The translations under genes and the position numbers were made by a program. Below the pieces are notes generated by a model. That model made no database searches. It saw only the letters and a list, made by a program, of their open reading frames with translations, and was not told the DNA's origin. This document shows positions 4,932 to 37,782 of a DNA stretch of 40,403 nucleotides, in pieces. The stretch lies in assembly GCA_012862495.1 (NCBI GenBank), contig BLSG01000157.1, positions 1 through 40,403 on the forward strand. The letters run 5' to 3'. Each line of letters starts with the position of its first letter. The stretch's first letter is position 1. This DNA is from Thraustochytrium aureum (Eukaryota).

Positions 4932-6017
4932 ATGGTGCGGCAGCTGGCGAGACGGACCACTGCAGCCGCGGCGGTGGTCCTGACCAAGTTTGACAGCAAC
5001 TTGGAAGACCCGGAAGCGGAGGTGATCGAGAAAAGGCTGCACTCGCTGCTCGTGGTTGCTGCGCTGCTGCTCTCTGCCTCGATTGGGCTGCTCAACCTGC
5101 CTTCCGAGGCGGAGATCAGCCTCCAAGGTCTTGACCTTGTCCGGTCGCACGAGGCGCTGGCGGTGATCACGTCTGGGGCCGACTTTTGGATGTCGTGCAC
5201 GCTGATCAGCTGGGCGTGCCAGCTGGAGCGCGAGTCGCGCGCGTTTCTAGACGCGGTGGGCACCCCGGGCATCGTCAGCCCGCTTGAGAGGTTGCGCGAC
5301 GGATTCCTCGAGTGGGCCTCGCTCGCAGTGCAGCTCTCGATGCTTGGCATCGTGCTCACCATGCTCACCTACTTGTCGCTCAACCACGTCAAAGCGAGCA
5401 GCGAGTCTCTCAGGGTCTGGTACAAGCTCAACGCCCTTGTCGTGTTCGTGAGCTACGGGATCACAGGGGCCTCTGCGGTGTGCATGTGCTTTGCTTTCAC
5501 CTCGCTCTCGCTCCTCAAGGGCGGCATACCGCTGTACACGCGGACGCTGCAGCGGACCTACTTGCTCGGATACACCTCCATGGCTTTGGCAGTGTACATA
5601 CTCGGTGGCCTGCTGCTCTGCAATTCGATTAAAGGCGAGATTGTCGGGCGCTACCAGCGCCGTGTTACGCTACCCCCGGTGCGGTCTGGCGCAGACTATG
5701 TCGCGGCCCCGGCGGCCCTGCGCGACGCGGCTCCCTGGAAGGTCGCTCCAGCGCAGACAGGCGGCCTCGCGTACCGCCCACTTGGCAACAAGAACAAGCG
5801 TGACGATGCTGCAGCTCCAAGCGTGTTGCGCGACGACGTTGAAGCGTTGCGCGACCCAAACCGCGCTCCAGGAGCGGCCGCTCTTGGGAAAACCGTAATA
5901 TTGGCTGATGAAGGGCATGCCTCGTCGGCGAGGCCGCCCCGAACAATACCCAAAGCCGGGGGTTCGCCGGACTCGTTTGCGCGCCTCAACCTCGACCTAG
6001 AGGACCTCATCAACTAG
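4932..6017 (+). CDS. multi-pass membrane protein of unknown function (about 5 hydrophobic segments, low-complexity tail)
   Basis: 361-aa ORF with coding-like codon bias and several hydrophobic stretches. No family recognised. Confidence 0.6.
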   Translation: MVRQLARRTTAAAAVVLTKFDSNLEDPEAEVIEKRLHSLLVVAALLLSASIGLLNLPSEAEISLQGLDLVRSHEALAVITSGADFWMSCTLISWACQLERESRAFLDAVGTPGIVSPLERLRDGFLEWASLAVQLSMLGIVLTMLTYLSLNHVKASSESLRVWYKLNALVVFVSYGITGASAVCMCFAFTSLSLLKGGIPLYTRTLQRTYLLGYTSMALAVYILGGLLLCNSIKGEIVGRYQRRVTLPPVRSGADYVAAPAALRDAAPWKVAPAQTGGLAYRPLGNKNKRDDAAAPSVLRDDVEALRDPNRAPGAAALGKTVILADEGHASSARPPRTIPKAGGSPDSFARLNLDLEDLIN

Positions 6018-6490: not shown

Positions 6491-9160
6491 ATGGCACGTG
6501 GACGACGCAACCGTGCACGCAAGGAGCGCAACGACAAGCGGCGCGAGACCCGCGAAAGGTTCCGGGACGACCGCGACGACCCCAAGGACCCGCGCAACAA
6601 GTACCGCGTTGCCCCGAAATGGAGCAGGACCTACCGGGAGTACTACGCCGCGCAAGGTGTGGCGCGCGACGAAGCCGACCTCGAGGCCATGATGGACACG
6701 CTGGCCCAGCCCCTCCCCGCCACCGTGCGCCTGCACGCCGAGGGCAACTTTGCCGACTCGCTGCGTGAACGACTCAAGGGCGAGCTCTCCGAAGGCTACC
6801 CGGTCTTTGCCAAAGACGATGAAACGCGCAAGTCTNNNNNNNNNNNNNNNNNNNNNNNNNNNNNNNNNNNNNNNNNNNNNNNNNNNNNNNNNNNNNNNNN
6901 NNNNNNNNNNNNNNNNNNNNNNNNNNNNNNNNNNNNNNNNNNNNNNNNNNNNNNNNNNNNNNNNNNNNNNNNNNNNNNNNNNNNNNNNNNNNNNNNNNNN
7001 NNNTGGCGTCTCGGCTGCGACAGGGCCACAATTCGCAAGCTCTCGGGCCTTTCCAAGCTCAAATCATTTCTCATCAACGAAACCGAGGCCGGAAACGTGA
7101 CGCGGCAAGAGGAGGCCTCGATGATTCCGCCATTCTTTCTCGATGTGCAACCCGAGCACCGCGTTCTGGACATGTGCGCGGCTCCTGGGTCCAAGACGTC
7201 CCAGCTGCTCGAGGCGTTGCACGCCAAGGATGCGGAGCGCGGGTTCTTGCCCCCCGCGGGCATGGTGGTCGCCAATGACGCCAACGAAAACAGGGCATAC
7301 ATGCTTGTCAAGCAGAGTCGCCGCATGGACAGCGGCAACTTGCTGGTCACTGCGCACGAGGCGCAGAGCTTTCCGCGCATTGAGGCCCTTCTCAAGGACG
7401 ACGGGTCGTTTGGGTTTTTCGACCGCGTCCTCGCCGACGTTCCCTGCTCTGGCGACGGCACCGCGCGCAAGTCCCCAGACGTCTGGACCAAGTTTGAGCC
7501 CGCCAACGGGTACACGCTGCACCCCTTGCAGCTCATGATTGCCAACCGCGGCCTCGAGCTGCTCAAGGTTGGTGGACTAATGGTCTACTCGACGTGCAGC
7601 CTCAACCCGATCGAGAACGAGGCGGTCGTCGCGCAGCTCCTCCGTGCCCACAAGGGCGCCGTCGAGCTCGTGGACACCTCCGAAACTCTCCCGCTCCTCA
7701 AGCGCCGCCCAGGGCTCTGCACATGGCGCATGGCCATCCAGCAGTTCGAAGAGAAGGGAGAGGGAGCGGAAGGCGTCGATGCCGCGGCCAGCTCGGCCAG
7801 CTCGGCCCCCGGCCAGCTCGATGGAGCAAAGCCCGGCGCCTACCTCAAGTGGCTCGACGCCCCAGACTCGAGCATCAAGGCGGCGGCCAAGATCCCCGAG
7901 ACGGCCTGGCCGCCTTCTGCGGATGAGGCGCAACAGATGCACCTCGAGCGCTGCATGCGAATCATGCCAAACGACAACGACACGTCCGGGTTCTTCGTAT
8001 GCCTTCTCCGCAAGACCGCTGACCTGGACAAGCGCGTCCGGATCAGGCGCGTCGTGCAGCGCGCGCCGCGCGCAAAAACGGCGAAGCGACCGAGGGCGCG
8101 ACGAACACACCTGCTGCCATTGCCACGCCAGACGGCGACCAGGACGCTGCGAGCGTCGCCGACGATGCCGAGGCGGGCGCCTCGGCCGGCGCCTCGGCCG
8201 GCGCCTCGGCCGGCGCCCCGAAAGACGCGAAGGAGGAAGCCGAGCCATCGTTCGGGCGGAATGACTCTTACCAGCCGCTCCCCCTCGCCATGTACGAGCG
8301 CGTCAAGGACTACTACGGCATCCTGGAGGGAGGTCCCTCCGTAGAAAACCTGTTCTGGCGCGTTGGCGGCGGCGAGATGCTGTCGCGGCGCCAGGCGAAG
8401 AAGCGGCGCATGGAGCGCGCCGACCAGGTGGAAACCGGCGAACACAAGCCCATCAACATCACCTATGTGTCCAAAGAGGTTGCCGACCTGATTCTGAGGC
8501 CGGAACGAGGCGCAAAAGGTCCGCATTGTCGCGGTCGGCACAGTCGTCTTCAAGCGCAACCAGCGCATCACGGGCGAGAACTCCGAGTACAGGATCTCGC
8601 AGAACGGCATCCGCGTCGCGCTTCCGTTTGTGACCAAGCGCAAGGTCGAGGTCGCGCTCGCGGACTTGGCCATCATGTGGAAGCTCGCCATGCACGAACC
8701 CAAGGACCCTGCGGCGGCGCGGCTGATCAAGCGATTCCACGGCACGCCGCTTGGCATGCTCTCGAGCGACACGCAGCAAAAGCTGCGTGACAAGAACAAC
8801 GCTGGCGGCTCCATTCTCATGCTCGGCGGCGAGGAGCAGCGCTTGTATCAAGAACGGTTCGGCGAGCCTCTGGCGCTCAGCTTTTGGGTCGGCAGCGAGA
8901 CGGTCACGCCGATGATCAACAAGCTCGACTTCAACGGGGTATTCGACAAGCTCTGCCGCGTGGGCCTCTACGATGTGACAGCCCTCGACGGCCTGGACGT
9001 CGACCAGCTGGTTATCCAGCACCTTCCATCTGAGGCCGACATCAACAACAAGCTCCCCAGCCACGTGGCCGAGTCGTTCCCGCCCGCTGAAGAGGCCGAC
9101 GACGTCCCAGACGCCAACGCCAACGAGGACGACGAGGCCAACGAGGGCGACGACGAGTGA
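6491..9160 (+). CDS. NSUN2: tRNA (cytosine-5)-methyltransferase NSUN2/Trm4; spans an N-gap and two apparent frameshifts (~8035, ~8500)
   Basis: 'RQEEASMIPP', 'VLDMCAAPGSKT', 'FDRVLADVPCSGDGT' (motif IV Cys), 'VYSTCSLNPIENEAVV' (motif VI Cys), 'DTSGFFVCLLRK'. The C-terminal part continues in other frames ('VKDYYGI', 'VRIVAVGTVVFKR...YRISQNG') to TGA at 9160. Confidence 0.9.
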
Positions 9161-9609: not shown

Positions 9610-9765
9610 ATGGCCACTGCTGACGAGGAGGACTCCCAGTCGGTGGGCTCGGCGTCCACCGCGAGCGTGAATGTTGACCCCACCGAGGTCGTGGAGGAGG
9701 AGGAGCAGGAGGAGGAGCAGGCCGTGGAGCCGACTGTGCGTGTTGATGAGCAGACGCCAATGGTG

Positions 9766-9798
<33 letters not shown>

Positions 9799-12700
9799 CA
9801 AGACGAGAGGAGCAGCGCGGCGCCGGGAGAAACGCCTGCGCCCAAGGCTCAGTCCGGCAAGCGACGCAAGACCTACAAGAAGGCGCAGAACAGCAAAACC
9901 GCGAACCGAAGCAGCGGCGATGCGTCGGCCCCCGCCAGCACGGCTCCTGAGGCGACGCAAGGAGAGGGCGATGGCGACGAAAACCTAAGCGAGATGGAGC
10001 GCGACCTACGAGAGGCCGAGGCCATGGACGCCACGCAAGAATCTGAGGAAGAGGAGGAGCCAAAGAGCGACGACCGGGCCTCGGCAGCGAGGCAAGACAC
10101 AAAGACGCAGGAGGCGCCGCGCGCCACGGCCCCAGAGAGCGGCATGCAAGCGGACGACGGAGCAAAAAAAGGCGAGACCGCCACCAACGACGAGGACGCC
10201 GACATGGAGCTCGAAAGCCAGCTGCGCGAATTCGAAGAATCGGAAGCTGCAGAGGAAATGTCAAATCGCGAGATGCGCGACAGCCAGAGCCTGGCCGAAG
10301 ACAAAGCGAGCGCCCAGGGCCCAGCTGGCCCTTCGCCACTGCACACACCAATGAACGTGCGCCGCAGAACGGAGCTTGCAGCCCACTGCCCGGGACGCTG
10401 TGCACTGGCTCTGAGCAGAAGCGGCAAACACGTTGTGACCGGGGGCGGCGACGCCTTCATCAAGGTCTTTGAGATGCTTCGTTCCGAGCCACCCGGCGCT
10501 CCGGAAAGCTCTATCGACTTGACGGATGAGGTGCTCTGTCTCGACGCCCATCCCTCCAAGGACGAGGTCGTCTATGCAGACCCGAACGGCAACGTACAGC
10601 TGATCGGCCTGCCCCAAGGCCAAGCCATTGACCTGCTGTGCCGCCTCCCTGGTCCCGCCCGAAGCGTGGCCTTCAGCCCCGATGGAACACGCGTCGCCGT
10701 TGGAACCACAGAGCACACGGTTCGCATCCTCACCCTCGACAGCGAAACGGCCCCGAAAGAGATGAAAGGCCACCTCGGCGCGCTTCGATCCGTGTCGTGG
10801 GACCCAAGCGGCGGGCTTATCATCTCCACTTCGACGGATGGAACGGCCCGAGTCTGGCAAGCAGAATCGGCAACCTGTGTGTACACTTTCGAAGATGCTC
10901 TCGAGCGCAACAGGAGCGAGGCGCTTGAGGAAAAGCAAGTCGGAATCCCTGCCTGGTCCGGGGACGGCGAGGTCCTCGCACTCCCCGGCAAGCCATACGT
11001 TCGCCTTTTCATGCGCGGCGCGTGGGCGGCGCCAAGCATCGACGTCAAGACCGGCAAGGTCTCGGCCGTTAGCGCTGTCTCGTTTTCTCCGAACGGGGCC
11101 TACCTCGCGGCAAGCACTGTCGCTGGAGACCTCGTCGTGATCGACGTTGAGAAGCGAGAGGTTGTCGTGGATCTCGCAGAGTCCATGGGCTACACCGGCG
11201 CCGCCGTGCAGGCAATGCGCTGGCTTCCGAAGCACAACGTGCTCGTCGCCCTGAGCATGGAGGGCGAGCTGCACGAGTTCCAGCTGGTCATCCCAGAGTC
11301 GTTCGGGAAACCGCCGGTCGCTGCCGCAGAGGCCGCGGTTCAGGGGCGGCAAGGCACTGAGCAAAACGAGGAGCGGCTTGATCAGACGAGCGCCCTTGTT
11401 GAGACGCGCGCGGAGGCGCGCGAAGAGGTCGACTTTGGCGACCAGGATGACGATGACGACGAGCGAGACGACGAGGACGGGGCCGCGCGCCAATCTGCCG
11501 GCCGGCACGGCATCACGCGTGCCGAAGGCGTCTCGCATGAACAGCTGGACCAGCGGATCGCGGCGGCCGTCGCTAAAAAGCTAGCCGAGCGCCCTGTGCG
11601 ACAACCGGCGTTCCAATCTGGCGCGGGCGGGGAGACCGGCGAGGACCGCACGTTTCTTGTCTGGAATGCCACAGGGTCGATTGTGGCGCGTGCAGAAGAC
11701 ACACACAACTCCATCGAGATCGAGTTTGCCGACAGCAAGAACAGGTCGCTGCGCTTCACGGATCATTTTGGCTTCGAAATGGCCGCGCTCTCAGAGACTG
11801 GCGCCATTTTCGCAACACGCGGCTCGTTCGATGTCGCTTCAAGCGATCGTTACGGCTCGCGCCAGGCAGACCCCGCGCGTCCGAGCGACGGCAACCCTGC
11901 AGTCGACGACGTAGACTGGGAGCCCGCAGCCGTCGTTGCTGCTCGGGACGCGGCTGCCAAGGGCGGCAGCAACCACACTGACGCAGACCTGCGCGGCCGA
12001 TCTATCCTTGCCGCTGCTATGGAGGCCGCCGAGCTGGCAGAGGAGCACGGTGTCGCCGTCGATGCCAGCGACGGGGACGGGGAGACGGGACCCGCCGGCA
12101 TGTCCGAGGCCGAGCTGTATGGCGAGGCGTCCGTGGTGTTTTTCCGCCCAGTCAACTCGTGGGGACAACGCCGGCGAGTGGACGCTGCGGCTCCCAGCGA
12201 AGGAGAAGGCGCGGTGCGTGGCTGCGGGCGGCTCGTTTTGCGCAGTTGCTACTAGCCGCCGAACGCTCCGCGTGTTCCGGCCAAGCGGGCTGCAAGAGGC
12301 GCCGATCGTCCTTCCCGGCCCGGTCGTGGGCCTCGCGGGCGCTGGCACGCTGCTCTTTGCTGCTTATCACATTTCAGAGCCTTTCGAGAACGGCACGCAG
12401 CGCATCGGATTCACCCTGTTCAACATTGGCGGCGAGGACATTGTCGGTGGCGGCATTGCAGCGTCTCTGGCTACCGGGGTCATCCCGCTGCCGGTGCGCG
12501 AGCCCAAGCCTCTCCGCTGGCTCAGCATGGCAGACAAGAGCATGGGGTTCATGCCCGTTTGCATTGATAGCAACGGGATGTTACTCGGGCTCTCGTGCGC
12601 CATGCAGTGGTCTTGGGTTCCGCTGCTGGACACGGCCGAGTTGAGCAAGAGGAAGGACGCCAAGCAAACGCGTGCAGCCGGCCATCGGCTTTGGCCCGTC

Positions 12701-13001
12701 AGCGTTCAGCTGAGCAAGCTGATGGCGGTCCACCTCAAGCCTGGGGCTGCCGGCCCGCTGACCTTCCCACGCCCCGTTCTAGATTCCCATGCGCTCGAAA
12801 TCCCTCTTCTTGGGCTGCACGGCTCGACGGGCACGCTAAAGTTTCAGCTGGAAGAGGCTGCAGTGAAGAGCGGCCTGGTCCTCGAGCAACTCAAGTGGGC
12901 CCGCTCGGCAGGCATCGTTCGTTCTTTGGACGACGAGGACAGCAAGCTCAGGGAGGAGGAGGCGCAGCTGGACGCCAAGGTTCTCAAGCACGTCATCCTC
13001 G
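9610..13001 (+). CDS. WDHD1: Ctf4/AND-1 replisome adaptor (WD40 + SepB); frameshift at ~12162; 3' end lost in gap
   Basis: WD40 repeats, then SepB-type motifs 'QPAFQSGA', 'FLVWNATG', 'SIEIEF', 'SW[D]NAGEWTLRLP', 'AVATS..LRVF..SGLQ', 'WVPLLD', 'WPV', 'P..FPRP'. Confidence 0.9.
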
Positions 13002-13954: not shown

Positions 13955-16459
13955 TCAGCCAGCGCTCCCCGCGCTTGTGCCTGAGCGCAGCGCCGCGCCC
14001 TTGTCGCGGTCTGGCCAGAGTGTCCTGAGCGCTGCGCACTCCTCAATAAACTGCGCAAAGGATGGGTACACTCGAGGCCCGTCGTTCGTGACAATCTGCA
14101 CTCCAGTGTATCCGTGCACTGGCGAAATGAGAGAATGGACAACGCGCCCCCCCGACTGCGTGATCGCCAAGGCAAGCTGCCCTGGACAACTCTCACTTAT
14201 GCGCACCATAAAGGTCCCCGCAGCACAGGGGCGCAGCTTTGCATTCACGGCCTCTTTCGAGACCAGGCCAAAGATGATGTGCGAGTCCCAGTACTTTGAA
14301 AACCGAGCAACCATGGCAAGCGTGGCAGCCGAGCCAGCCCCAGAAGGCCACGAGCGCCCGCCTGCAACCCAACTCTGAGGGCTCGACTGGCACGCGATAA
14401 AGGACTGTCCGCATCCGCTCAATGTCGTCCGCCGAGAGCCGTCGCTCTACTCGACGTGGAGCGTACAGGGTGGCTTCGAGCACGGCACGGATCTCGTCGC
14501 GCACGTGTGGCCACAGGTCGGGAAACGATCCGGGGCCACCCGCAACAATGCGGTTGAACAACGCTTCGAAACGAGCTGGTTCCCAAGAAACGGCAGGGCG
14601 CGATTCGATAGAGCCGCCGTGCGACGCCGTCACGACTGAAGCGCTAAATGGAAAGCCCTGAGAGGTTGCAGAATACGACCCCGACGAAGTTGCCGACACT
14701 GTTGAGGCCACCGACGCTGCGCGCTCGACCGGCGCAGGCTGGCCAGGGACGGGGTCCGCGATCGCAGAGCGGGCCGGGGGCGGCGGCGAAGCGCCCCCGG
14801 GCAGGACCGAGATCAGACCTGCAGAGCCGCTAGTGGTTCTCCTCGGCCCGCGCTCACGCTCGACCCGCTTGCCAGCCAGCGAGCTCGCAGCCTCGCAGGC
14901 CTCCGCGTGCAGTTCGTTAAGGTTCTCCGCCCCAGCTTCTCGGCAATGAGGCCCAGGACAACAGGATGGCCGGCGCAGGCGCGGAGCACGGGGTGCTTGG
15001 CGAGCTGGTTGAGTCGCTGCGCGTGCGACATGTGCCGGAGAAGCGCAGCGGACGCACCGTTCATTATTTCGCCGTCCGACAACTGGCGCGGGCTGATCCG
15101 CGCCAAGAGCAGAGCCGCATGCGCGTCGCTGAGGGCGCCAACCTCGAGTGAAGCCTGCTGAATGCGCGCCCCGCTCACCGCGAGGGCGACCCTGGACGTG
15201 CAGATAACCGACACTGCCGGAGCATGGTCCAGCAATGCCTCGACAAAGTTGTGCAGAAGAACCCACGAACCAGCCCCTGCAACGTCGCAGTCTGCGAACT
15301 GGTCGCAACCGTCGAGCACGATGAAGAGCGGGCCGGGACACGGACAGGCTTTGCTCTCGGCATAGGCTTGAATGGCACCGAACAGTTCTTGCTCGGACTG
15401 CGCGGAGCCAATGCCGCTCCCGGCTGGAGCGCGGGACCGCACAGACTTCCACAGATGGTCCCTGAGCGCAGAGTCTCCAGCGCGTGCTGCCTGGTGGCGC
15501 TGCAACGGCACAAAATATGCGCCTTTGCAGTGACGGCGCTCGCAAAGAAATTCGCAGAGGCAAGCCGCGCAGGATGTCTTGCCGATGCCCTTCTGGCCCT
15601 GAAGGGTCAGCCAGCGGGCCGGTCGCTCAGGGTCCAGCAGCGCACGGACCGCGGCCTGCATGAGGACGCGCCGGCCCACGAACTTTGACGTGACTCGGGG
15701 GCAGGCGCTCAGGGGCCGGGCGACACTTTCATCGATAAAGTCGCCGGTCTGGACGGCCTGGAAGATGTGCACGTCGTGATCCACAGCTCCGTCTTGAGGC
15801 AAGAGGAGGAACTTTTTGCGCTGTCGATCTCGCCAAGCGTCGTCCCGGCCCGGCGTGAGCTGAATGCAGTTGTGCGCGTGCGTGAACGCGCCTTGCACGG
15901 TCTCGCCTGCAAGCAGGGCGGAGTAAAACTTGACAGCAAACTCGCTCGGGAACCTTGTCGGCAACTTGAACATCTCGGCGCACGGCGACGACGTGGGGCA
16001 CGCCGGCCTGGACAAAGACGTTGCCCGTGTCCTGAGAAAAGCAGGCAGAAACAAAACGAGCTTGGTGCCGCTTCCGGCGCCCTCGAGCATGGCGTGCAGG
16101 TCCCTCGTGCTGAGCCGATCGAGGCTGCCGAAGGCGTCCTCCAAGGCGAGGAAGCCGTCTGGAAACCCGTGGCCAGTAAAGTGTATCACGTCAGGCCCGG
16201 GCGCGGTCGCTTCCTCCAGCCCGCCGTCGCCGTGCCCGCTGAGCAGGCGCTGCAGCTCGGCACGGCTAGCGACGCTAAACCGCAGGCGCACCTCCTTGGC
16301 GTTGTCCTCGAACATGGCGCAAAACTCGTCGCATTCGCGCTGCACGTTGAGGGCCTCGAGTTCCTCCACGGACTCGACGACGCGGCCATCGCCTCCGCGC
16401 TGCGTCAGCGGCGAGGCAAACAAATACGCAAACAGCGGCCTGTGCGGTTGCGCCGCCAT
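13955..16459 (-). CDS. CHAT (caspase-like) peptidase - STAND/NB-ARC-like NTPase - STAT-type SH2 fusion protein, reconstructed across 4 indels (~830 aa)
   Basis: CHAT: 'IHFTGHG' and, after 1-nt repair, 'LVFVSAC'. NTPase: 'FVGR', Walker A 'GQKGIGKT', Walker B 'LFIVLDGCD', 'ICTSR', 'CAGHPVVLGLIA'. SH2: 'FWGWL...KYWDSHIIFGLVSK...GTFMVRISESCPGQLALA'. Confidence 0.75.
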
Positions 16460-17432
16460 CCCGGCCGCTCGCTCGCTCGGGCAGGGCAGGGCAGCGCTTC
16501 GAGCTCGCGTCCACTGCGCTGCGTCCGAGCAGGCCTTTCCGGCAGGGGCAGCAAGGCGCCCTCTCGCGACGCGCGCGCCTGCCTNNNNNNNNNNNNNNNN
16601 NNNNNNNNNNNNNNNNNNNNNNNNNNNNNNNNNNNNNNNNNNNNNNNNNNNNNNNNNNNNNNNNNNNNNNNNNNNNNNNNNNNNNNNNNNNNNNNNNNNN
16701 NNNNNNNNNNNNNNNNNNNNNNNNNNNNNNNNNNNNNNNNNNNNNNNNNNNNNNNNNNNNNNNNNNNNNNNNNNNNNNNNNNNNNNNNNNNNNNGAGACT
16801 GTTCTGCGCGGGTCGATGCTCTACTCTGGCGTTCTGGTAGCGCCAGCAGGCCGTTTTCGCATGGATGAACGAGAGCCCGCATCGCGGCCAATCCACCCAG
16901 GTGTTGCTTGCTGCGCCGGGCGCGGAGTGAGGCCCTCTGCGGTGCGAGCCAAGCCGCCCCGACCCGCTTTGGTTGGTGGCTTGGATGGACGGATGGTTGG
17001 ATGGTGAAATGGTTTCGAGAATTTCTGGGCCTGCCTCAGGCTGCCTGTTGTGGGCTCAGAGCGCTCTAGCAGTCCGCCCCGGTCCGGCCCGCCTTGGCTT
17101 TGGATGGGGGGCCGTCGCGGCGGCGTCCGAGTTTCTGCGGGAAAAGGTTCGTCTAGCTAGCGAGAGAGTCCTGTTTCGGTGCTTTGCTCCTTTGGGTGGT
17201 TGATCGCGCGCTCGTGTGCTGCTAACGCACGCACCGATGTGCACGCGCTTGCGCTTTTCGCGCGGTGTGGCTCTGCGCAGTTTCGGCCTTGCGAGCATCC
17301 ATCGCATGATAGCTTCGTTGGCCTGCGAGAAGATGGCCTGCGAGAAGATCTCACAGGCACTCTGCACGGTGTCTACAATCTGATCTGAATTCGGATGACC
17401 TGCGTCCTCACTACACCCAAAGTGCGCAAGGC

Positions 17433-32636: not shown

Positions 32637-34739
32637 TCACTTGAGCTCCTCCATGAGCCGCGAATAGCGCTCGGAAAGCTCTTGCAGCTTGGCGTTGCCC
32701 TCGAGCTTGAGCGCAGCCTGGGCCTTGACTGTCTCCTCAAGCTGCGAGACACGGTTGTTGTCCGTGACGCCTCGCTTGCGGAGGTCCTCGAGCTCGTCAA
32801 GCGCGTCGCCCTCGGCAGTCATAGCATCCGAGATGGCCGTCAGGATCGGGTTGCTCTCATCGAGCTGCTTGGTGAACAGCTCGACGCGCGCGCGCGCCTG
32901 GCGCTCGGCGGTTGCGTCGGCCGCAGCGACAGCCTTTTCGATGTCGACCATCGCCTTGGAAACCTCAATGGAGAGAAACAAGGTGAGAAAGTTGCGGATC
33001 CCGAATCCGCCGCAGCCGGGCTTGATGGGGGCGCAAGACCCGTCCGGGAGCCGCTTTTCGCTGCAGACGCGCTGGATAAACTCGAGGAAGGGCGCCTCGT
33101 CGCCCGTCTTGCGCTGCAGGATGTTGCAGGTGAAAATCTGGAACAGGATGTCGCTGCCCTGGATGTCGACGAGGATCTTGTTGCGCACAATCTGCAAGTA
33201 GGTCTCCTCGGCAAAGTGGTCGCGCAGCAGTGCGTACATGTTGCTGAAGCGCGCGCGCTTGACAGCGGCCACGACCGCGGAGCGGCCTGCGACGTCGAGG
33301 CCGCCGGCAGCCTCCACCTTGGCAAGGGTTGCCAAGATCTGGTCCTGGGTGATGTCCAGCGAGACGATGCCGGCTACCGTGCAGTGCCCGTCGGCGACGA
33401 GCGCGGCCACAACAGCCGCCGCAGCGTCCTTGCCAAGTCCGCACGCCACGAGGTCGGCTTCGGCAAGGTGGCCATAGTACGAGCGCGGGATGTTGAGGAA
33501 GGAGAAGCCGCGCCCGGTCATGACGCGATAGTTGTTGACGCGCTCGATGAAAGAGACCAGGTTTTTGACGCGGCTGGCCAGGTGCTGCACGCCCTGCCCG
33601 AGCTGCTCCAAAAAGAAGTGCACGTGGCCCACGTCCGACAGCGCGTTGTTGATCGGCAAGTAGATCTGCGACTGGTCGCGCAGCACCTCCTTCGAGTCGC
33701 ACTTTTTCTGGGCCGTCCCGGCGCTGTTGCCAGTCACTGTCGACTCGATCTTGGCGCGCCCCGCGGCAACAACACCGGCGTTAAAGTCCACCTTGGGCGT
33801 GAACCCGAGCACGTCCTCCAGGGTGTCGAGGAACGAGCGGCGGTCCACGACGTTGCTGACCCAGTGGTCCGCGTACGCCGGGATCGACGTCCCGTCAAAC
33901 TCCGCGGGGACGTCCTCGAGGCCGGGCAGGACGCCTTCAGGGTTGCCAAAGCCGTCCTTGGCGCCGTACGAGCCAGCGCGGTGCACGAACCGCAACACGG
34001 TCCCCTCGTCTGCGGGCCCAGTCTTGTCCTTTTGGTAGTATGCAAACGCCTCGAGCACTTTCATGGTTCCGAGCACGATGCGCCGCGACTCGCCTGTCGC
34101 GCCGTCCTTGACCATGCGCGAGTCCTCGTACTCGCAGATGCCGCGAAGGAGGCTTGGGTGCAGCTTTTTGTAGCGCTCCATCGTCGCCTCAATCGCGCCG
34201 TCTTCGGGAAGCTCAAAGCCGAGCACGGCGATGCCCGCATGGTCGTGGTGGCACTTGAAGAACTTGTCGATGTTGCTCTGCGAAAAGTGCGCGTACGGCT
34301 CTGCTTGAGCCTCGCCGCTCGTCTTGGTCGAGGTGGTGACCACCAGCTTGACGCCCTTGGGGTCTTTGCTCGTGACGAGCACGGAGCGGGTTCCGGGCCC
34401 GCAGTACTCGGCGGTGACGCGCCAGCCGAGCCCGACGATCATCTGCTCCACCACATCCTGGCCGGCCGGCTGAAAGGCGGCCTCATCGACGGCCTCCAAG
34501 CCGCCCTTGCTGCACAGATCGGCCCACGCGGATTTCCCTTCCAGCACGCGCGCATCCAGGGCGTTGGGCTGGAGAAACTTCATGCCGCCCGAGAACGGGT
34601 CAAAGCTGCCCTTCCCCGCGAGCTTGTTGAGCATAGCCTCGATCTTCTTGTACGTCTGCGTGCTCTGGAGCGAGTCGACGTACATCTGCACATGGTGAAA
34701 CTCGCACCCAAACTCGCGCCCGTCCAGTTCGACGTTCAT
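32637..34739 (-). CDS. HPD: 4-hydroxyphenylpyruvate dioxygenase (elongated, ~700 aa)
   Basis: 'ADHWVSNV', 'YLPINN', 'GQGVQHLA', 'YYG', 'ILVD', 'LFQIFT', 'PFLEFIQR', 'GCGGFGIRNFLTLFLSIE'. The His/His/Glu Fe ligands are present. Confidence 0.88.
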   Translation of the reverse strand: MNVELDGREFGCEFHHVQMYVDSLQSTQTYKKIEAMLNKLAGKGSFDPFSGGMKFLQPNALDARVLEGKSAWADLCSKGGLEAVDEAAFQPAGQDVVEQMIVGLGWRVTAEYCGPGTRSVLVTSKDPKGVKLVVTTSTKTSGEAQAEPYAHFSQSNIDKFFKCHHDHAGIAVLGFELPEDGAIEATMERYKKLHPSLLRGICEYEDSRMVKDGATGESRRIVLGTMKVLEAFAYYQKDKTGPADEGTVLRFVHRAGSYGAKDGFGNPEGVLPGLEDVPAEFDGTSIPAYADHWVSNVVDRRSFLDTLEDVLGFTPKVDFNAGVVAAGRAKIESTVTGNSAGTAQKKCDSKEVLRDQSQIYLPINNALSDVGHVHFFLEQLGQGVQHLASRVKNLVSFIERVNNYRVMTGRGFSFLNIPRSYYGHLAEADLVACGLGKDAAAAVVAALVADGHCTVAGIVSLDITQDQILATLAKVEAAGGLDVAGRSAVVAAVKRARFSNMYALLRDHFAEETYLQIVRNKILVDIQGSDILFQIFTCNILQRKTGDEAPFLEFIQRVCSEKRLPDGSCAPIKPGCGGFGIRNFLTLFLSIEVSKAMVDIEKAVAAADATAERQARARVELFTKQLDESNPILTAISDAMTAEGDALDELEDLRKRGVTDNNRVSQLEETVKAQAALKLEGNAKLQELSERYSRLMEELK

Positions 34740-36366: not shown

Positions 36367-37782
36367 ATGCTCGATTCTCTGGAATACCGCGAAGAAGGTG
36401 TCAACGTCGAGTCTTTCGCCAACGCGAGCAAAGCTGCAGGTCCACAGGCGGAGGGCGGTGCGGCCGATGCTAGACGGAGCGGCCTGCAAGTGTCGACGGG
36501 AGCGATCGTAGCGATCGCTTTCATCACGTCGCTGGCGTGGGCAGTGCTGCTAAACCTCTCGTCGCAGTCCGGCGCTGGCTGGTGGAATGACATGCGCAAC
36601 CAGTACCCGTTCTCTGGCGAGCTCGGGCTCGGCCGATTTGAGATTCGCGGCTACAGCGGTACCGCGCTGGACTACCCCTGGCGGCTGGCAAAGCGAAACA
36701 CCGCCGGGACAGCGATCGCCTGGCTCGTATACGTTGTCCACCAGGTGGCACAGTGGGTTGTAATCGCCCTCGCCAAGCACGACAAGGACGCCCGCCTGAA
36801 AAAGGCCGGCGAGCCGCGTTTCAGCGATCGGCTCGACAAGCACAACTGGCGAATGCTTGCTGTAAACGCGAGCGGCGTGTTTGCCGCGTACGTGGTGCAT
36901 ATGGTGTGGTACGATGGCCTGGCGGGCACGATCGCCGAGTCCATCTCGCAGTCCTCAGTCATCCTGTTTCTCGCTCTTGTGGTCTTGATGGAGATGCCGC
37001 GGCGCGGCCTCTTCTTCGGGCGCGGCAGACGCGTGGCCTGCTTTTCTCAGGGGCTAAATGAGGCCTTGTTCTCGTTTTTCAAGCGGTACCATGCCTACGC
37101 GTTCTCCTGGTCGTTCGTCTTCGTGTACCATTACCACCCGCACGAAGCCACATCGAGCCACCTTGGCGGGTTTTTCTACACCACGCTGCTCCTCTGGCAG
37201 TCCAACCTAATCTTCCACACGAGCCACTTGAACCGCAACTGGACGTTTGCGCTCGAGGCTCTTGTTGTGATCCATGCGGTGCTGGTGGCCGTGATCCAGA
37301 GCCTGCGCAACGTGATGCAGTTTGGGCTGGGGTTTCTGATCGTCATTTTGGTCGTGGAGCTCGCAGGGGTGCCCGCAGTCCAGCGCTTTATGTTCCCCGA
37401 CTACCCGGTCAACAAAACGCGGGCGCAGAACGTCTTGCTTCCCGTAGGCATCGTCGTGTTTATCGCGGTGCTTGTCGGCAGCTTCTACGCGGCAGGGTAC
37501 TTTGAGGGTTCGAGCCCGACGACGATCATCTTTATTCCCATCGGGTACCTAATCATCGTGCTTGTTACTGCACTGGTCTTTGCGGCTGGATACGTTTGCC
37601 AAGAGACCTGCGGAATGCGCTCCCCTGCCGCGGTGGGCACGTTTGCGGTTTTCGGGTTTGGCGTGGTTTTGTTCATATCCGTGCTGGTCAACGGCGGTGG
37701 CACGCCGGGGTTTCACAAGTTTGCCACTCCGGAGCAGGGCGTGATGTTTCTGGCCGACAACGTAACAGAGCTCGTGCTCTGA
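36367..37782 (+). CDS. polytopic His-rich membrane protein (roughly 10-12 TM); N-terminus may extend upstream across the gap
   Basis: 471-aa hydrophobic ORF with motifs 'YPWRL', 'VHQVAQW', 'HMVWYDGLA', 'SQSSV', 'EMPRRGLFFG', 'RYHAY', 'YHYHP', 'HLGGFFY', 'HLNRNW'. Confidence 0.75.
   Translation: MLDSLEYREEGVNVESFANASKAAGPQAEGGAADARRSGLQVSTGAIVAIAFITSLAWAVLLNLSSQSGAGWWNDMRNQYPFSGELGLGRFEIRGYSGTALDYPWRLAKRNTAGTAIAWLVYVVHQVAQWVVIALAKHDKDARLKKAGEPRFSDRLDKHNWRMLAVNASGVFAAYVVHMVWYDGLAGTIAESISQSSVILFLALVVLMEMPRRGLFFGRGRRVACFSQGLNEALFSFFKRYHAYAFSWSFVFVYHYHPHEATSSHLGGFFYTTLLLWQSNLIFHTSHLNRNWTFALEALVVIHAVLVAVIQSLRNVMQFGLGFLIVILVVELAGVPAVQRFMFPDYPVNKTRAQNVLLPVGIVVFIAVLVGSFYAAGYFEGSSPTTIIFIPIGYLIIVLVTALVFAAGYVCQETCGMRSPAAVGTFAVFGFGVVLFISVLVNGGGTPGFHKFATPEQGVMFLADNVTELVL

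Follow-up and report, generated by a model that had tools for sequence, protein, structure and literature searches.

The locus studied here raises the question of whether a protist can carry a CHAT protease domain, a STAND NTPase and an SH2 domain in a single chain, and what such a protein would do. In the window, by which we mean the whole analysed stretch of 40,403 nucleotides of Thraustochytrium aureum DNA, the locus is divided over four minus-strand frames, with changes near 16055, 15950, 14925 and 14330. The preliminary description had listed these four ORFs and quoted their motifs, all of which were found in place, and had proposed that four one-nucleotide repairs would join them into one protein of about 830 residues starting at ATG 16459.

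Four frame breaks are assembly errors

The stretch is wholly or partly present in nine public runs, and short-read contigs from four of them (X1-X4) were compared with the window. They differ from it by exactly four indels and show no joints. The window has lost one base between 16052 and 16053 (added after 16052 in X1-X4) and another between 14929 and 14930 (added after 14929 in X1, X2 and X3), and it has one base too many at 15951 (left out in X1-X4) and at 14327-14328 (left out in X1, X2 and X3). A substitution at 15949 is common to all four runs. When the four indels alone are applied, the coding sequence runs from 16459 to 13955 on the minus strand as a frame of 2505 nt, that is, 834 amino acids and a stop, with no internal stops and no need of an intron. 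The repairs proposed beforehand are thus the same four indels that the contigs of two studies show, and the single protein of the expected length is obtained.

As the source sample is possibly X1 itself, independent support for the indels comes from X2-X4, which are all from one other study and carry further substitutions relative to the window. As explanations of the breaks, tiny introns and RNA editing were rejected, since the same letters without joints are seen in contigs of DNA type and in those of RNA type; the RNA status of X2-X4 is a guess, none of the listed runs being recorded as RNA. The gene is covered piecewise, and positions 14809-14817 and 16456-16459 are on no listed contig. 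The latter stretch holds the ATG, which was chosen from the start points of homologues; since the frame stays open upstream of 16459, through a masked stretch at 16585-16794, an N-terminal extension is possible.

Could the locus still be a pseudogene, or consist of separate genes joined by chance? The four breaks seen in the window, and the lack of a single contig across the gene, would fit such a reading. Against it, all four breaks are absent from the short-read contigs of the two studies, on which ground a pseudogene was rejected. The variant codons between runs and window are synonymous in 15 cases out of 19, where about 30% would be expected with transitions weighted fourfold (P 1e-5; some contigs have a depth below 5), and in the CHAT and NTPase parts all 8 of 8 are synonymous. 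Furthermore, the full-length homologues P0157, P0164 and P0165 are complete transcript-derived ORFs, which implies that in relatives the three domains lie on one mRNA. The breaks are all within or adjoining short base runs, and a neighbouring WDHD1/Ctf4-like gene (9610-13000, plus strand) is split in the same way, its Mcl1_mid domain being found over two frames (profile positions 2-75 and 92-291), likely because of an assembly indel. Indel errors are therefore likely to be general in this assembly. Altogether a pseudogene or chance joining is almost certainly the wrong explanation. The four breaks are assembly errors, the gene only looks broken, and it is intact and under purifying selection.

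The genes of the window are dense and intron-free, and the neighbours of the CHAT-STAND-SH2 gene are housekeeping genes; one of them, for eIF2B-delta, has its best species-named match in Hondaea (53%). This match, the nearest named homologues of the CHAT-STAND-SH2 protein (Hondaea and Mucochytrium) and the dense, intron-free arrangement suggest a host of thraustochytrid-like labyrinthulomycete type. Two further loci seem to be spread over consecutive ORFs with probable indels, an RsmB/NSUN-type methyltransferase (6491-9160, plus strand) and a kinase with a HEAT/ARM ORF behind it (29011-23967, minus strand), the latter pair being presumably Fused/STK36-like. A 700-aa ORF at 32637-34739 (minus strand) has a strong codon bias and matches no Pfam family at E 1e-4; it holds a His-Trp-Val-Ser-Asn motif, which may resemble hydroxyphenylpyruvate dioxygenase. 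Two hydrophobic, membrane-like ORFs, at 36367-37782 (471 aa) and 4932-6017 (361 aa), both on the plus strand, match no Pfam family either.

Domain composition and resemblance to known proteins

Residues 2-826 of the corrected protein align with the homologue P0001 (868 aa) at 42% identity (E 1e-180), and for this reason P0001 was folded as a stand-in, with an alignment of 46 sequences (mean pLDDT 81, pTM 0.68). A second model was made of a member from Mucochytrium whose spacer is short (pLDDT 88, pTM 0.74). The preliminary description had placed CHAT, STAND NTPase and a C-terminal linker-SH2 in one protein, and Pfam and fold matches were obtained for all three. No NCBIfam family came above cut-off, and PADLOC gave only weak SAVED_CHAT and TPR matches.

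The CHAT caspase-like protease domain covers aa 9-235 (15755-16435, minus strand) and is supported by Pfam, by fold match and by its motifs, with the catalytic His97 in HFTGHG (16183-16166) and Cys140 in FVSAC (16054-16041). On the uncorrected N-terminal half the Pfam CHAT match was below cut-off (E 5e-4), because the domain is interrupted there; it was above cut-off on P0001-P0005, with E 3e-16 on P0001. SAVED-CHAT is a type III CRISPR effector in which ligand-driven assembly activates the protease, and in apoptosomes, too, caspase-fold proteases are activated by assembly. The closest solved protease domain is that of SAVED-CHAT (PDB 8tl0, entry title 'activated filament'), on which the P0001 model superimposes with Z 22.8 and rmsd 2.2 over 196 residues, the His and Cys motifs aligned. 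SAVED-CHAT differs from the 834-aa protein in that its sensor is a nucleotide-binding SAVED domain and in having no NTPase. The caspase-haemoglobinase fold is present in the model and the His-Cys dyad in the sequence, and the domain is a predicted protease.

Directly behind follows the STAND NTPase, aa 255-523 (14892-15697, minus strand), identified by Pfam and fold match. It consists of the nucleotide-binding domain and helical domain 1 only, and carries the motifs FVGR, Walker A GQKGIGKT (15598-15575) with Lys294, Walker B LFIVLDGCD (15328-15302) with Asp383, CTSR, and GHP (14971-14963, residues 497-499); Arg423 is a further residue of this domain. Pfam NPHP3_N matched above cut-off (E 5e-8), AAA_16 (2e-7) and NACHT (2e-5) came just below, and no other Pfam STAND family passed the cut-off on the uncorrected pieces. 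Helical domain 1 with its GxP motif was found, and it is a helical bundle in both models. In the P0001 model the NTPase resembles CED-4 (Z 14.5) and Apaf-1 (Z 14.0), so the nucleotide-binding and helical domain fold is shared with the apoptosome proteins, and the logic of an oligomer that activates a caspase-type fold may be shared as well. Unlike these proteins, the 834-aa protein has no CARD, winged helix, HD2 or WD40 repeats, and its protease is fused and of the CHAT type.

Behind the NTPase lies a spacer rich in Ser, Ala, Pro and Gly (aa 524-624, 14589-14891, minus strand) and predicted to be disordered, with pLDDT below 50 in the corresponding part of both models. Then comes a STAT-type helical linker domain (aa 625-725, 14285-14588, minus strand), identified by the family profile and by fold match, and an SH2 domain (aa 726-828, 13976-14284, minus strand), which matches Pfam SH2 above cut-off (E 1.8e-5). 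With the family profile, matches across linker and SH2 together were obtained to Dictyostelium STATa (1uur, E 4e-28) and STAT6 (E 1e-25), and the P0001 model fits STAT6 and other STATs with Z 16.5 and rmsd 2.7 over 162 residues. In the SH2 domain Lys735, Arg753 in FMVRISES (14212-14189) and His775 are in place. The tail behind the SH2 domain is without tyrosine, and the spacer has one, Tyr596.

The protein thus shares linker and SH2, in sequence and fold and with an intact phosphate pocket, with Dictyostelium STATa and STAT5/6, but unlike these it has no coiled-coil, no DNA-binding domain and no tail tyrosine. When 30 homologues were scanned with Pfam, the SH2-bearing ones gave no match to coiled-coil or DNA-binding domains, and in the models there is neither room nor fold for them. 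A STAT transcription factor was therefore rejected: there is no DNA-binding domain, and the tail tyrosine is absent here and in 38 of the 47 members, some of these sequences being possibly truncated. The database name 'STAT A' of the Hondaea member is a mislabel by similarity. This Hondaea model (P0002) is also without the second half of the NTPase, perhaps a gene-model error.

A family that has lost the winged-helix-type module

A search with the N-terminal 548-aa frame against 1.84 billion representatives (E up to 0.001) gave 516 clusters. Among 152 homologues, 150 of them among the matches listed of these 516 and two from a separate search, a linker-SH2 profile matched 47, one by the linker only. 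The profile was built from 46 of its 47 matches, which makes this count partly circular; as an outside check, Pfam was run on the first 30 homologues, and of the 14 flagged by the profile it found SH2 in 12 and STAT_linker in 1. The named SH2-bearing members come from Hondaea, Mucochytrium, Achlya, Saprolegnia, Paraphysomonas, Norrisiella, Partenskyella and Nonionella, that is, from thraustochytrids, oomycetes, a chrysophyte, chlorarachniophytes and a foraminiferan, and hence from stramenopiles and Rhizaria. Nearest to the 834-aa protein are those of Hondaea and Mucochytrium. The range may extend beyond these two groups, as most members have no species name. A metagenome scan of single proteins found no relative, and a viral scan with the family alignment gave none among 25 pattern matches.

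Members of the family can be found in public databases, where they carry automatically assigned names such as 'STAT A' and 'SH2 domain-containing protein'. The architecture had been called unfamiliar, and this holds for the literature, where no published description of the layout was found in full text, but not for the databases, which already contain the family from stramenopiles and Rhizaria. The domain pair could be listed in the supplements or the figure 3 network of PMC4342544, or in subscription surveys of STAND and SH2 proteins; 'CHAT' is absent from the main text of PMC4342544. In that paper SH2 is described as pan-eukaryotic and putative tyrosine kinases are given for the oomycete Phytophthora. 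The available part of PMC3670131 describes the linker-SH2 as older than STATs and makes no mention of oomycetes.

All three sites are conserved in the SH2-bearing homologues (n=46). The CHAT His is kept in 40 (5 gaps, 1 changed) and the Cys in 43; Walker A Lys and Walker B Asp in 45 each and the GxP Pro in 42; the Arg of the SH2 pocket in 43, the Ser next to it in 44 and the basic alphaA2 residue in 39. The sensor-1 Arg is kept in the 834-aa protein and variable across the family. At least two members, P0014 and P0064, have lost catalytic residues, so in some lineages proteolysis is dispensable for the family.

The same data bear on what the SH2 domain may recognise. The SH2 domain of yeast Spt6 reads a ligand other than phosphotyrosine, and the domain could similarly bind phosphoserine or phosphothreonine, or an anionic lipid. 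Such a ligand would suit a host without a demonstrated tyrosine kinase of its own. This is quite improbable, since the closest structures are SH2 domains of STATs and the full Arg-x-Ser-Glu-Ser pocket is kept together with the basic alphaA2 residue. It is also conceivable that the protein recognises itself in a STAT-like or Src-like manner, its own tyrosine being phosphorylated and bound by the SH2 domain in a dimer or a self-lock; the module is STAT-derived, and Tyr596 could serve. The missing tail tyrosine, here and in the 38 members, makes this highly improbable, as does the fact that 23 of the 47 have no tyrosine in the spacer and that no spacer column has a conserved one. With no tyrosine behind the SH2 domain in most members and no conserved spacer position, the ligand is most simply sought in trans.

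In a tree of the CHAT-NTPase core, 44 of 45 SH2 members cluster together in a group of 65 rows (support 0.82); most of the remaining 21 have little sequence behind the NTPase. On the 83 labelled rows the SH2 label changes 3 times, as compared to 27.6 when shuffled. The tree omits near-duplicates and sequences that cover less than 60% of either core profile, such as P0002 of Hondaea, and the label test omits 63 unlabelled rows. The result is compatible with a single gain of the SH2 module.

The preliminary description had regarded the protein as an otherwise standard NLR with an SH2 domain in the sensor slot, and this part has to be revised. The NTPase ends at helical domain 1, and the place of the STAND winged-helix domain is taken by the spacer, which varies from 10 to 228 aa across the SH2-bearing family. 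In both models the GxP helix is followed by one or two helices, disorder, and then the STAT linker. From 16 TPR-bearing relatives a profile was built of what follows helical domain 1, a region taken as winged helix by position; it matched 29 of 33 bacterial-type proteins (one of them in the training set) and none of 60 SH2 members, a number that includes near-duplicates and the 834-aa protein itself. Among 77 metagenome loci, many of them fragmentary, 8 had the SH2 module, 8 the winged-helix-type module and none both. In 8 of the 47 members the spacer is only 10-28 aa, too short to house a winged-helix-type domain. A C-terminal repeat sensor (LRR, WD40, TPR or ankyrin) was looked for by Pfam and profile and is absent from the 834-aa protein, which has the linker-SH2 instead. 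Both the latch and the repeat sensor are thus replaced in the SH2 members. A canonical NLR was rejected, the module being missing in 60 of 60, and without it the classical NLR latch cannot work unchanged, nor is nucleotide-gated switching in the style of Apaf-1 assured.

The contrast is clearest with the NLR-like CHAT-STAND-TPR proteins of bacteria and fungi (P0012, P0018, the bacterial locus L007, and fungal CHAT-NLRs as described in PMC10197012), which are among the top matches to the core. They have the same CHAT directly before STAND, with the same motifs, but continue with a winged-helix-type module and TPRs where our protein has a disordered spacer and the STAT linker-SH2. The gene in L007 (5968-8787, plus strand) is close to the eukaryotic family, and its neighbours are housekeeping-looking (guanylate kinase-, ABC transporter- and asparaginase-like), from which we infer that the CHAT-STAND core also exists in bacteria.

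In other homologues the same core is combined with TPR, LRR, LRR-kinase, FHA, SAM, SPRY, PAS, receiver, Macro, LanC and ARM modules, a pattern that would suit a switch whose inputs can be swapped. With FHA the list includes another module that reads phosphopeptides, and in the FHA-CHAT-NTPase proteins (P0004, P0100, P0113, P0142 and P0171; the named ones from Albugo and Pythium) it is placed in front. Seven proteins (P0119, P0132, P0137, P0062, P0069, P0071 and P0095) have the core with LRR-kinase, LanC-like, Macro, response-regulator or PAS modules, and such fusions make up a large unstudied set of protist receptors. In P0146, a model of 1597 aa that could be a fused gene model, a class C GPCR (ANF receptor, 7tm_3) stands behind NTPase and SH2.

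Integrated domains of plant NLRs show a comparable pairing with varied modules. The linker-SH2 could in the same way be a bait for a protein of a parasite or virus, or monitor a phosphoprotein of the host against removal or modification by an invader, and the protease would fire upon such a disturbance. The many signalling modules on the CHAT-NTPase core agree with such a guard or decoy, and pathogen proteins that bind animal STATs are known from entry titles (7nuf, 8d3f). The pocket residues are strongly conserved and not diversifying, and a guard or decoy function is for this reason unlikely.

How the protein may be triggered

Our preferred reading, which we hold to have an even chance of being right, is that the 834-aa protein is a protease switch triggered by phosphotyrosine. 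The SH2 domain would bind phosphotyrosine on another protein, the resulting clustering together with nucleotide binding would assemble an NTPase oligomer, and in this oligomer adjacent CHAT domains would become active, by analogy with apoptosomes and SAVED-CHAT. With the winged-helix latch and the repeat sensor absent, something other than the mechanism of NLRs has to keep the protein at rest. We suppose that the linker-SH2 packs back on the core and that the ligand lifts it off, with plain recruitment as a close alternative. The pTM values of the two single-chain models, 0.74 and 0.68, are above the 0.66 and 0.58 that we roughly estimate for a freely floating SH2 module, which gives a weak hint from modelling that the linker-SH2 may act as such a lid.

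The SH2 domain could also be only an address label on a flexible tether. Its role would be to carry an assembled or proximity-activated protease to receptors or kinases that have been phosphorylated, and the protease would there curtail or shut down ordinary signalling, with neither an allosteric gate nor a death programme. The spacer is disordered and 10-228 aa long, there is no winged-helix latch, the neighbours are housekeeping genes, and the slow, purifying pattern fits routine signalling. However, Walker A and B are almost invariant, which implies that nucleotide binding is kept under selection, and in eight of the 47 members the spacer has 28 aa or less. Targeting alone is therefore a possible explanation, if a rather improbable one, and we keep to the phosphotyrosine-triggered switch.

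As to the output, CHAT-bearing NLRs have been linked to gasdermin control in fungi (PMC10197012). A defence or cell-death output of the present protein would be a guess, borrowed from these fungal CHAT-NLRs and gasdermins and from other CHAT relatives. No tyrosine kinase, gasdermin or other partner was found among the 15 window ORFs scanned. We tentatively suggest, with more doubt than confidence, that the family is a receptor class of stramenopiles and Rhizaria in which a bacterial-type CHAT-STAND core, without latch and repeat sensor, is gated by a STAT linker-SH2, and that it forms a caspase-like apoptosome triggered by phosphotyrosine and serving death or defence.

To the family the locus adds a complete member in which each of the three sites is intact, proof of the gene at the level of reads, and the loss of the winged-helix-type module. 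For two questions about SAR protists (among them oomycete pathogens, thraustochytrids and foraminifera), namely how their proteolysis is regulated and what purpose their few SH2 domains serve, the family offers one concrete protein, in which Cys140, Lys294 and Arg753 can be tested in one chain and in a lineage that has culturable, non-pathogenic members. It would be evidence that regulation of a STAND core does not require the winged-helix latch, and would mark some of the 'STATs' that databases list for SAR lineages as proteins other than transcription factors. If the reading as a receptor class is true, a single protein would link tyrosine phosphorylation to a caspase-like apoptosome, and beyond animals and amoebae the STAT module would have been put to a use other than transcription.
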